Source: a virus
Taxonomy: Duplodnaviria; Caudoviricetes
Direction: 5' to 3' (one strand)
IMG/VR virus record: IMGVR_UViG_3300036783_000080
Location: 1-64,000 of that record
DNA length: 64,000 nt
Positions 18,722 to 21,231 of this stretch are shown here, one piece after another. The translations under genes were made by a program, and so were the position numbers. Under the pieces are notes generated by a model that saw only the letters and a program-made list of their open reading frames with translations, did not search any database and was not told the DNA's origin. Numbering within the stretch: position 1 is the stretch's first letter; every line of letters starts with the position of its first letter.

Positions 18722-18794
18722 AATAATTCCTCCTTGGTTTTACAGTATAACCAATAATATAGAAAAAAGAGAGTTGGTTTTTACACCAACTCTC

Positions 18795-19424
18795 TTAGTC
18801 ATTCACATATATTAAGTTTTCTTTCAAATATTCTCTGAGTTTATCTATGTCCATGATGTTTTTCTCTAAGTATAGTTTGAATACGATATGAAGAGTCTCT
18901 GCTTCAACTTGCTTATGACATTTACCGCAAAGTGTTATCAGATTGAGAAGTTCATCTGCTTCCTTAAAATCCTCAAAAAGCCTTCTTGGGATTATATGAT
19001 GTACTCCATATCTTTTTTCTGTAAGTTCTTCTTTACATTTTTGACATTGTTTTCCATCTCGTTCATACGCTTTTCTTTTCTGCGTCTTTCCTGATGTTGA
19101 TTTACCATCTGTATATGCAACGTTTTCTTCTCCTGATTTAACAATAGGATTATCTCCAATTTCGACTCTATGGGAGCTTGAACAAGAATAAGAACAAAAT
19201 TTGTTATGTTTCCCTCTTACTTTATTTTCACAACCTTCTCTTAAACAAGTTTTTCTTTCGGTCTTGTTACCTCTGGTGTCACTAAGTATTTTTGTCATCT
19301 TTTCATCTTTCAACAAAGCTCCAGGGAACTTCTCTTTGTAATCTTCTTTTGTCATATCATGCTGTCTTAAATGAGTGTTTTGAATCCACTTCATTTCTTT
19401 TCCGCAAACTTTGCATACAACCAT
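18795..19424 (-). CDS. free-standing HNH endonuclease with Zn-finger-like N-terminus
   Basis: CKVCGK..., CQKC...VHHIIPR...NLITLCGKCH HNH motif; start moved to ATG 19424 (GGAGG RBS) because the longer ORF-track call overlaps capsid exon 2 and the terminator. Confidence 0.85.
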   Translation of the reverse strand: MVVCKVCGKEMKWIQNTHLRQHDMTKEDYKEKFPGALLKDEKMTKILSDTRGNKTERKTCLREGCENKVRGKHNKFCSYSCSSSHRVEIGDNPIVKSGEENVAYTDGKSTSGKTQKRKAYERDGKQCQKCKEELTEKRYGVHHIIPRRLFEDFKEADELLNLITLCGKCHKQVEAETLHIVFKLYLEKNIMDIDKLREYLKENLIYVND

Positions 19425-19461: not shown

Positions 19462-19490
19462 AGTATAAAATAAAAAGAGAAGAAAGTCAA
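19462..19490 (-). promoter_or_regulatory. sigma-A-type promoter for the HNH gene, embedded in the capsid terminator
   Basis: TTGACT (19490-19485), 17 bp spacer, TATACT (19467-19462). Confidence 0.7.
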
Positions 19491-19504
19491 GCTTTCTTCT
19501 CCCC
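19469..19504 (-). terminator. intrinsic terminator after the capsid gene
   Basis: GAGAAGAAAG-cttga-CTTTCTTCTC followed by TTTTTATTTT, just after the exon 2 stop codon. Confidence 0.8.
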
Positions 19505-19513
19505 TTATTAGAA

Positions 19514-21231
19514 CTACATGCTCATAGTAGTCTTGATGTTTTTGAATCTCATCCATTTTTTCGGTGCGTATACCTGTGTCTTCACATAAGTTCGCTAGTC
19601 CTTATGCCGTTCTCTTATGAACTGCTGTATGTCGCCATACAGAGGAGACTATATCACCACCTTCAGCTTTACCTGTTCAGGTGACTCTGCATTTCCACTC
19701 GCTTGAGTGTACTCCCAACCATGGGATAGTCGTTAGGCTTTTATCACTTTTCAGTGAATTTAGCACGGTAGGTTGTCTCTTCTCAGAGATTTTCCCCGTT
19801 TAACAGAGTTTCTTCGACTAACATTTCTGCTAGAAGGTACTATGCCGCAATCGTGTCATTGACAGATTCCTGCGTTAATACTGGTACACCGTATAACAGA
19901 ATCATCCAACGGTAAGAAGGAGACAATGTTGCTAAGTCCATCTTCATCATAGGAGCTAACTGTTTGAACGCAAGAACTTGCTCGTTCATTTCACCCATGA
20001 AAGCAGTGAATGTGTTCGGCATAGTTTCGTTACGGTCAACGAATGTTGTAACAGTTCCAGGAGCAGCTTGAGCAGCAGCGAAGCGGTCAATTTCAAAGAA
20101 TCGAGTTCCGTTTGCTTCAGTACGGTAAACACGGAAGTATTCCGTTGGGTACTGAGTTGAAGCTGCGCTTGTGATTGTGATTGTATGAGATTTATTTAAG
20201 TCTCCATCGCCAATTATTAAGTCAGCAGAGAATACTGGAGCAGACTCACCATGACGGTTACAAGCTGTAACTGCATATTTGTAAGTACCTTTACCAGAGT
20301 TATAGAACTCACCATCTTGAGTGTTATTAGTACCAATAGCACCAATAGTAGCAGAAGCTGGAAGAGCAGGAGCTTTCGCAGAGTTTGCTGTCATATTTAA
20401 TGCTTTTGTACGTTTTAAGAAGATATCTGGAGTGAAGTTGACTTTACCACCTTGAGTTTGGAATTGGTCAACGATAACACCAGCAGAATATCCTTGTTGT
20501 GTTGGCATGATAACACGCTCTTTAGGGAAGAACTCTTGAGAGAACTGAGCATGAACTTCGAATGGTAAGAAGATATCAGTTGGAATACCATAGTTATCCA
20601 CAATCATCTGAGCTCCCCAGTTCATGTGACGCTCTTCAAGTGGGTTACCTTTCATGTTGATAGTGTTTTCTGGGTCAATCATGTTATCTAAACCATCAAA
20701 CTCAACATATTCTTTTCCACCAGGAGCAAGTTTTGAGTTACCCCAGAATAAACCATGCTCAAGTTTCTTAAGCATCCATAAAATACCATCTTGGTTATAA
20801 CGAGAAACTACATCACCATGAGCACTATTTACTAATGTCATTTGGTGAGATACTTCACGAGTAGTACCAAGGAATTTTACGAACGCAGCTTGGCGTTGGT
20901 ATTGAGAATCTTCAGTATCTGGTAATTGACCTTCAGGAATGAACCCGCCGCCTTCAGAACCGTAACTGATTAATTGGTTGTACTCTTCAACAGTGTTTGT
21001 AGCTGTTAATTTTGGAATACGTTTCCAGAATTGAATGTGTTGTTCAGAGTAAGTAAGAACTTTTAAACTATTTTCAAGAGATTCAACACGGAACGCTCCA
21101 CCATTGGATTGCGTTTCAGGTGTCGTAGCATAACCTGCTTCCAAGGCTTTGCTTAAGTTATCCAATTCTGCTCCAGATGACATACCGAAGCCAGATTGCA
21201 TGTTACTTCCAAATTGATTTAAAGTATCCAT
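19514..21231 (-). CDS. major capsid protein, spliced: join(21231..19878, 19572..19514), 470 aa
   Basis: GGAFRVESLE, TVEEY and EFDGL capsid motifs; the expected C-terminus ...LYGVPVL-YAPKKWMRFKNI is recovered only after removing 19573-19877. Confidence 0.9.
19573..19877 (-). ncRNA. group I self-splicing intron (305 nt, no internal ORF)
   Basis: Exon ends in U (CCAGUAU) and intron ends in G (GACACAGG); P7 pair GACUA/UAGUC in AACGACUAU and GAUAUAGUC; P/Q-like AAACGGGGAAA and UACCGUGCUAAA; removal restores the reading frame. Confidence 0.88.

Follow-up and report, generated by a model that had tools for sequence, protein, structure and literature searches.

The window, by which we mean the whole 64,000-nucleotide stretch of DNA that was analysed, is part of a virus record of 150,650 bp whose genome is rated complete. 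The closest public genome is that of Bacillus phage Nachito (Herelleviridae, Spounavirinae), with 94–96% nucleotide identity across the capsid region. Here the minus strand carries a major capsid protein (MCP) gene in two parts, separated by 305 nt, and further downstream a gene for a free-standing HNH endonuclease (Table 1). The product of the first part of the MCP gene matches PHROG 752, major head protein, in a profile search (E 7e-136) as well as Pfam SU10_MCP. It is 97.6% identical to the Nachito MCP at the amino acid level, and about 60% identical to the SPO1 Gp6.1 capsid structure 9vel. In the list of open reading frames this gene appears as an ORF from 21231 to 19840 on the minus strand, coding for 463 amino acids with the C-terminus ...LLYGVPVLTQESVNDTIAA; the last letters of this unspliced frame are ...GVPVLTQESVNDTIAA. 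A short frame from 19570 to 19514, read directly from the minus strand, codes for YAPKKWMRFKNIKTTMSM followed by a stop. This tail matches the tail of the Nachito protein, YAPKKWMRFKNIKATMSL, is present in about 75 IMG/VR homologues, and aligns to the C-terminal end of SPO1 Gp6.1 (9vel) and of phage 812-type MCPs. The initial annotation of this DNA had pointed to an abnormal end of the capsid ORF, with the expected tail 305 nt downstream, and the minus-strand reading bears this out.

A separate observation concerns the N-terminal part of the MCP. Residues 26–72 (21156–21016, minus strand) are 49% identical over 47 residues (E 8e-12) to residues 163–209 of the prohead protease (22271–22131, minus strand), which lie in its C-terminal part. 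The same duplicate match recurs in many relatives, and the common segment may be a module that targets proteins to the capsid interior, or a common cleavage module.

Downstream of the second MCP part there is a hairpin with a T run, found by direct reading and probably the terminator of the capsid transcript. The consensus scan did not report it; in Nachito, too, the MCP gene is followed by a hairpin and T run in the corresponding position. The HNH protein encoded beyond it has an N-terminal ROS/MucR-type zinc finger, a central Cys-rich segment and a C-terminal HNH motif. It matches the Pfam families HNH (33.9 bits, cut-off 21.4) and ROS_MUCR (29.5 bits, cut-off 25.4) as well as PHROG HNH families, and its best match in the PDB is the phage HNH protein 5h0m (E 0.012). 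The catalytic and zinc-binding residues (His-His, Asn, His, Cys) are invariant in the five homologues that were aligned. Searched alone against IMG/VR, the protein gave no match, and the IMG/VR homologues described below were found by using the alignment of five homologues as the query. A packaging-type HNH protein that acts together with the terminase was rejected as the main reading, since the gene is absent from Nachito and the protein contains a zinc-finger DNA-binding module.

Table 1. Features of the capsid region in the window, with related features in other genomes (last three lines)
Feature	Position	Strand	Remarks
MCP exon 1	19878..21231	minus	codons 1–451 and first base of codon 452; 3' end is U19878
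MCP exon 2	19514..19572	minus	last two bases of codon 452, 18 codons, stop TAG
Group I intron, 305 nt	19573..19877	minus	ORF-less, subgroup IA, td-like core; preceded by U19878, terminal G19573
In-frame UAG ending the unspliced frame	19840..19842	minus	11 codons into the intron, within the internal guide sequence; its G19840 contributes to the U.G pair
P1	19881-19876/19842-19837	minus	GUAU|UA with UAGUAC, 6 bp; U19878.G19840 wobble at cut site
P2	19836-19829/19822-19812	minus	base-pair check
P3	19809-19804/19689-19684	minus	base-pair check
P4	19799-19794/19772-19765	minus	base-pair check
P5	19789-19785/19780-19776	minus	base-pair check
P6 and P6a	19764-19737	minus	base-pair check
P7	19731-19727/19651-19647	minus	GACUA with UAGUC; crosses P3 as a pseudoknot
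P7.1	19726-19713	minus	UCCCA/UGGGA
P7.2	19709-19696	minus	CACUC/GAGUG
P8	19683-19658	minus	base-pair check
P9	19642-19625	minus	GCGA loop
P9.1	19621-19581	minus	base-pair check
Hairpin, 10 bp (19501-19492/19486-19477), and T run	19472..19501	minus	probable capsid-transcript terminator, by direct reading
Sigma-A-like promoter, TTGACT-17-TATACT	19462..19490	minus	consensus match only (10/12); overlaps the hairpin and precedes the HNH gene
Free-standing HNH endonuclease gene, 209 aa	18795..19424	minus	90 nt after exon 2; RBS GGAGG at 19437-19433
Terminator-like hairpin after the HNH gene	18767..18796	minus	consensus scan
Unannotated group I intron in the MCP gene, 327 nt	L002:3811-4137		LysYB2 (OP628076.1), Rfam 58.2 bits; same in LysYB1
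Group I intron at the LysYB2 site, 321 nt	L008:2648-2968		IMGVR_UViG_3300003846_000022, 68.8 bits
HNH homologue, 231 aa	L008:3127-3822		after the intron-bearing MCP gene of L008

The group I intron and its splice junction

The Rfam model RF00028 matches the interrupting sequence over its full length (model positions 1–253, match 19887–19625) with 55.2 bits, 5 bits above the gathering cut-off of 50. The E-value is 3.5e-13 when 800 nt are searched and 1.6e-14 for the 150-kb genome, well beyond what would be expected by chance. When Rfam was run on the whole 64-kb window, the intron was not found with the gathering threshold or with E <= 0.001. We attribute this to the speed filters of the search and not to a true absence; as the scans of 800 nt and of the genome do score the intron above the cut-off, whole-window scans can under-report group I introns. 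The same genome has a second group I intron outside the window (G000:C1:106604-106877, 86.3 bits), which is of the polA type.

When base pairs were counted helix by helix, P1 to P9, P7.1, P7.2 and P9.1 were all found to be fully complementary. The count is that of a single sequence and has no support from covariation, as this intron lineage is represented by one copy. Exact 20-mers of it were not found elsewhere in IMG/VR, and with blastn against the phage collection it matched other introns at the level of the core only, with a best coverage of 73% of the intron at ~69% identity. An unconstrained minimum free energy fold recovers P1 to P6 and P7.2. The exon contributes only 4 bp to P1, and an extension hairpin lies between P1 and P2. 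A P10 is possible, in which AUA (19843–19841) and GCG (19848–19846) of the guide would pair with UAU and CGC of exon 2. The presence of P7.1 and P7.2 places the intron in subgroup IA, and its resemblance to the td introns suggests IA2. According to the ORF list there is no reading frame of more than 40 amino acids within 19573–19877, the longest (40 amino acids) lying on the opposite strand only. Thus the proposals of the initial annotation, that the intervening RNA follows a U and ends in G, that it has a GACUA/UAGUC P7, and that its guide can pair with both exon ends, all hold, in the last case through P1 and the possible P10. That it is a group I intron is likewise supported by the Rfam match, the helix check and an intron-less homologue.

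The splice register needed to be checked, since the intron and exon 2 both start with UA. Joining U19878 to U19572 gives GTA T|TA TAC GCA CCG in frame, and among the shifted registers that were compared, only U19878/G19573 combines a U at position -1, a terminal G and a junction of the Nachito type. The resulting coding sequence has 1413 nt and 470 codons for amino acids, reads ...YGVPVL|YAPKKW..., and has WMILLYGVPVLYAPK as its junction peptide. The MCP gene of Nachito is uninterrupted, also 1413 nt and 470 aa long, and ends in ...YGVPVLYAPKKWMRFKNIKATMSL; the two are collinear with 62 mismatches. These comparisons support the exact junction that had been proposed. The interruption was also placed correctly, although it had been described as lying 19 codons from the end, while the interrupted codon 452 is followed by 18 sense codons and the stop. 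In a tblastn search with exon 1, the matches of 784 phage records end at residue 452, or at 449 in the case of the LysYB phages.

Exon 2 differs from the Nachito sequence in 11 of 59 nt but in only two of 18 residues, which points to purifying selection on a segment that is translated. As exon 2 is translated and constrained, the exons have to be joined. A translational bypass or frameshift that connects both MCP parts was rejected, because the 305 nt match a ribozyme model. Together, these results make it well supported that 19877–19573 is a group I intron that splits the MCP gene, and the full-length capsid protein would depend on its splicing, as the initial annotation had it; the Rfam match, the helix check and the intron-less Nachito gene all point this way. 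In the expected reaction the guide sequence of the ribozyme would pair with the exon end GUAU, forming the U19878.G19840 wobble. An external guanosine would then attack, and the RNA would be cut after U19878. Finally, the terminal G19573 would take the place of the guanosine and the exons would be joined. The joined RNA would code for ...YGVPVL-YAPKKWMRFKNIKTTMSM, the conserved C-terminus of all relatives, while unspliced RNA would give a product that ends 11 codons into the intron, at the UAG within the guide sequence. Such an unspliced C-terminal variant, also suggested earlier, follows from the sequence (stop UAG, 19842–19840), but the production and use of this protein remain hypothetical. 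The intron RNA is expected to splice itself efficiently in infected cells.

Introns and HNH genes at the capsid locus of relatives

Nachito has neither the intron nor the HNH gene, and the spacer of 64 nt after its MCP gene corresponds to 778 nt here. Divergence between the two genomes is unevenly distributed: in exon 1, 51 of 1354 nt differ (3.8%), and in exon 2, 11 of 59 (18.6%; Fisher p 2.5e-5). Another 4 changes fall in the last 50 nt of exon 1. A rise in divergence towards exon 2 is the pattern that would be expected for a block copied in from another phage.

Among other herelleviruses, HNH homologues directly after the MCP gene are found in the Lysinibacillus phages LysYB1 and LysYB2, in Bacillus phage S4-1, and in L008, L010, L089 and L096 (the L loci are IMG/VR or metagenome contigs; L010 is the same contig as L097, and L089 is similar to L098). 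LysYB2 and L008 also have group I introns in the MCP gene, with Rfam scores of 58.2 and 68.8 bits. These are inserted 8 nt upstream of the site in the window, after GT or AT of the codon that follows YG. The LysYB2 and L008 introns are 80% identical to each other but only 53–55% identical to that of the window, which is no closer to them than to the polA-type intron of its own genome. In LysYB2 the CDS deposited in GenBank (L002 2492-3853) runs into the intron, and the true C-terminus is encoded at about L002:4138-4213. In S4-1, L010, L089 and L096 the HNH gene is present and the MCP gene is uninterrupted. Altogether, the MCP gene is interrupted at this spot in 3 of 7 HNH-carrying lineages and in none of about 77 HNH-less loci (Fisher p 4e-4, or 0.015 among closer relatives), with counts that are phylogenetically non-independent and represent two insertion events.

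The histories of intron and HNH gene are discordant, however: between LysYB2 and L008 the introns are 80% identical and the HNH genes 57%. The exon flanks show patterns of their own. L008, with an intron, and L010, without one, are 92.6% identical overall, with dense synonymous differences within ~25 nt of the site. Between LysYB2 and L008 the first 22 nt of exon 2 are nearly identical, as opposed to 75% elsewhere. These two patterns resemble what homing-associated conversion or target-site immunity would leave behind.

Two further loci deserve a comment. In the S4-1 record (PQ069208.1, UNVERIFIED) a 1114-aa ORF at L003:43-3387 combines a long tail-fibre-like N-terminal part with the last ~60 residues of an MCP, and is followed by the HNH homologue; given that the record is unverified, the fusion has probably arisen by misassembly. 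In a distant, GC-rich relative (L059:3230-3300, IMGVR_UViG_3300045988_153922) the MCP reading frame is broken precisely after YGI, where site A lies. A third intron was rejected here, as there is no Rfam hit, the next gene follows immediately, and the tail IGRASN lies a few codons further on in another frame. The break may be a short deletion or frameshift at a hotspot for introns and nucleases, or an assembly error.

Origin of the intron and its probable link to the HNH gene

Taken as a whole, the locus is best explained by a spliced IA intron at codon 452 of a herellevirus MCP gene, one that probably travels together with the downstream HNH gene; we give this reading a probability of roughly 85–90%. 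In this scenario the intron would spread, or be kept, together with the free-standing HNH gene. Capsid alleles of co-infecting phages that lack the intron would be cut by the HNH enzyme within the conserved stretch that codes for YGVPVLYAPKK, and in the course of repair the intron, exon 2 and the HNH gene would be copied into the recipient. In the carrier genome the target of the enzyme would be split by the intron, an arrangement called collaborative homing. The term stands for an ORF-less intron and a free-standing endonuclease that converge on one site (PMC3984707; PMC10448857). The locus has an intron without an ORF and an adjoining free-standing endonuclease gene, and the close relative Nachito lacks both. 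Judged by gene arrangement and comparative patterns only, intron and HNH gene have probably spread or been kept jointly.

A different explanation is that the intron is real and spliced, while the HNH gene is an independent homing element with another target, such as the intergenic region downstream of the MCP gene. The intron would then have come, or stayed, by way of an internal endonuclease gene that was lost, by reverse splicing, or by ordinary recombination. The four HNH-carrying lineages with uninterrupted MCP genes fit this explanation, as they indicate that the nuclease does not need the intron, and together with the discordant intron and HNH phylogenies they leave room for independent elements. 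Homing endonuclease genes are also often found clustered beside capsid genes, and endonuclease gene turnover has been proposed as the source of such layouts (PMC10448857). Against this stands the occurrence of two unrelated intron lineages 8 nt apart, only in genomes that have this HNH family, and of exon flanks that look converted at both insertion sites. We regard independence of the two elements as rather unlikely, though it deserves to be taken seriously.

A bolder form of the joint reading is that a single family of post-capsid HNH enzymes in Bacillus and Lysinibacillus herelleviruses targets the invariant YGVPVLYAPKK-coding stretch, and that two unrelated ribozymes have been recruited to it independently, 8 nt apart, each splitting the target and moving along with the nuclease. 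This we hold only tentatively, with the odds somewhat against it. If it is true, alleles with the HNH gene only, with the HNH gene and a site-A intron, with the HNH gene and a site-B intron, and with neither element form a natural series, one that captures successive steps in the assembly of a mobile intron within the most highly expressed late gene of a phage.

Splicing could also be seen as a regulatory gate that tunes the timing or amount of capsid protein, or that provides a minor truncated capsid species. This could work through the balance of spliced and unspliced RNA, or through ribosomes at the UAG that compete with folding of the ribozyme. The stop of the read-through frame does fall in the P1 guide strand, which would set translation against the formation of P1. 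An early in-frame stop is usual in phage group I introns, though, the closest relative Nachito does without the intron, and the way in which it is present or absent among relatives looks like the behaviour of a selfish element; a gate of this kind is improbable. Least probable of all, to the point of being nearly dismissed, is a decayed ribozyme relic that no longer splices, leaving a 463-aa capsid protein that ends in TQESVNDTIAA, or a record that stems from a defective genome: the Rfam score is near the cut-off, but no helix of the core is broken, the frame of exon 2 and 16 of its 18 residues have been kept through 11 nt changes, every relative has the conserved C-terminal tail, phages whose capsids have been solved among them, and the genome is rated complete.

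If the capsid gene is spliced as proposed, the phage would rely on a ribozyme to make the roughly one thousand capsid subunits of each virion. There are also practical effects on genome annotation, because gene-calling programs end the capsid gene too early, at the in-frame stop that lies in the intron; the GenBank entries for LysYB1 and LysYB2 contain this error. For Herelleviridae, the MCP gene has been selected as a phylogenetic marker on the view that it is free of introns (PMC7409376). Herellevirus MCP introns appear to be undescribed so far, and a literature search on the LysYB phages found nothing. Cultivable phages (Nachito-like ones and LysYB1/2) offer a system for the collaborative-homing route to mobile introns, with intron-less, nuclease-only and two kinds of intron-bearing alleles of the locus available in nature.

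Comparison with known systems

The kind of element found here is known: both capsid-gene introns and pairs of an intron with a free-standing nuclease have been published. In mycobacteriophage LittleE, an intron in the capsid gene was found to be spliced by RT-PCR and judged to be most likely group I (PMC3706429), and a capsid-gene intron of lactococcal phage Tuc2009 is cited in the same paper. The intron in the window thus has a precedent, and the statement in the initial annotation that phage introns mostly sit in other classes of genes has to be qualified by these two cases and by the other intron that related herelleviruses carry 8 nt away. As in the window, the host is a tailed phage with the intron in its major capsid gene, which makes the most abundant late protein dependent on splicing. 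In LittleE the intron has 820 nt and an endonuclease ORF of its own, whereas that of the window has 305 nt and none, and the phage families and capsid genes are unrelated.

With regard to the ribozyme, the core is most like that of the T4 td intron (IA2), and its nearest relatives in sequence are the td introns of Tequatrovirus N2 and Bacillus phage TimeGriffin. The td introns of T4, Tequatrovirus N2 and TimeGriffin share 69–75% identity with it over P3–P9; they, too, possess the P7.1 and P7.2 helices and meet an in-frame stop shortly downstream of the 5' splice site. Differences are the host gene, which is that of thymidylate synthase for the td introns and that of the major capsid protein here, and the long P1 extension hairpin of the window intron. 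In addition, the T4 td intron has I-TevI inside, while the window intron is ORF-less. Closer in location are the introns of LysYB1/LysYB2 and of 3300003846_000022, which share the gene, the YG(V/M)PVLYAPKK stretch and the HNH homologue directly downstream, but differ in their site, 8 nt upstream (GT|A or AT|G), and in belonging to another ribozyme lineage.

Another instructive example is the DNA polymerase intron of SPO1 and SP82 with I-HmuI, as cited in PMC3706429 and PMC7409376. The genome of the window likewise has a polA-type intron; in SPO1/SP82, however, the HNH gene is inside the intron and the host gene is that of DNA polymerase, while here the HNH gene is outside and the intron lies in the capsid gene. 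As collaborative pairs, the psbA intron of cyanophage S-PM2 with F-CphI, and the DNA polymerase introns of T3/T7-like phages with a neighbouring HNH gene, have been described (PMC3984707; PMC10448857; PMC6083498). In these systems, as in ours, close relatives differ in the presence or absence of both elements. F-CphI is an Endo VII-type enzyme, while the window encodes an HNH protein whose zinc finger is of the ROS/MucR type, and the interrupted gene here is that of the major capsid protein. For the S-PM2 and T3/T7-like pairs cleavage of the insertion site has been established by experiment, whereas the pair in the window is known from its sequence.
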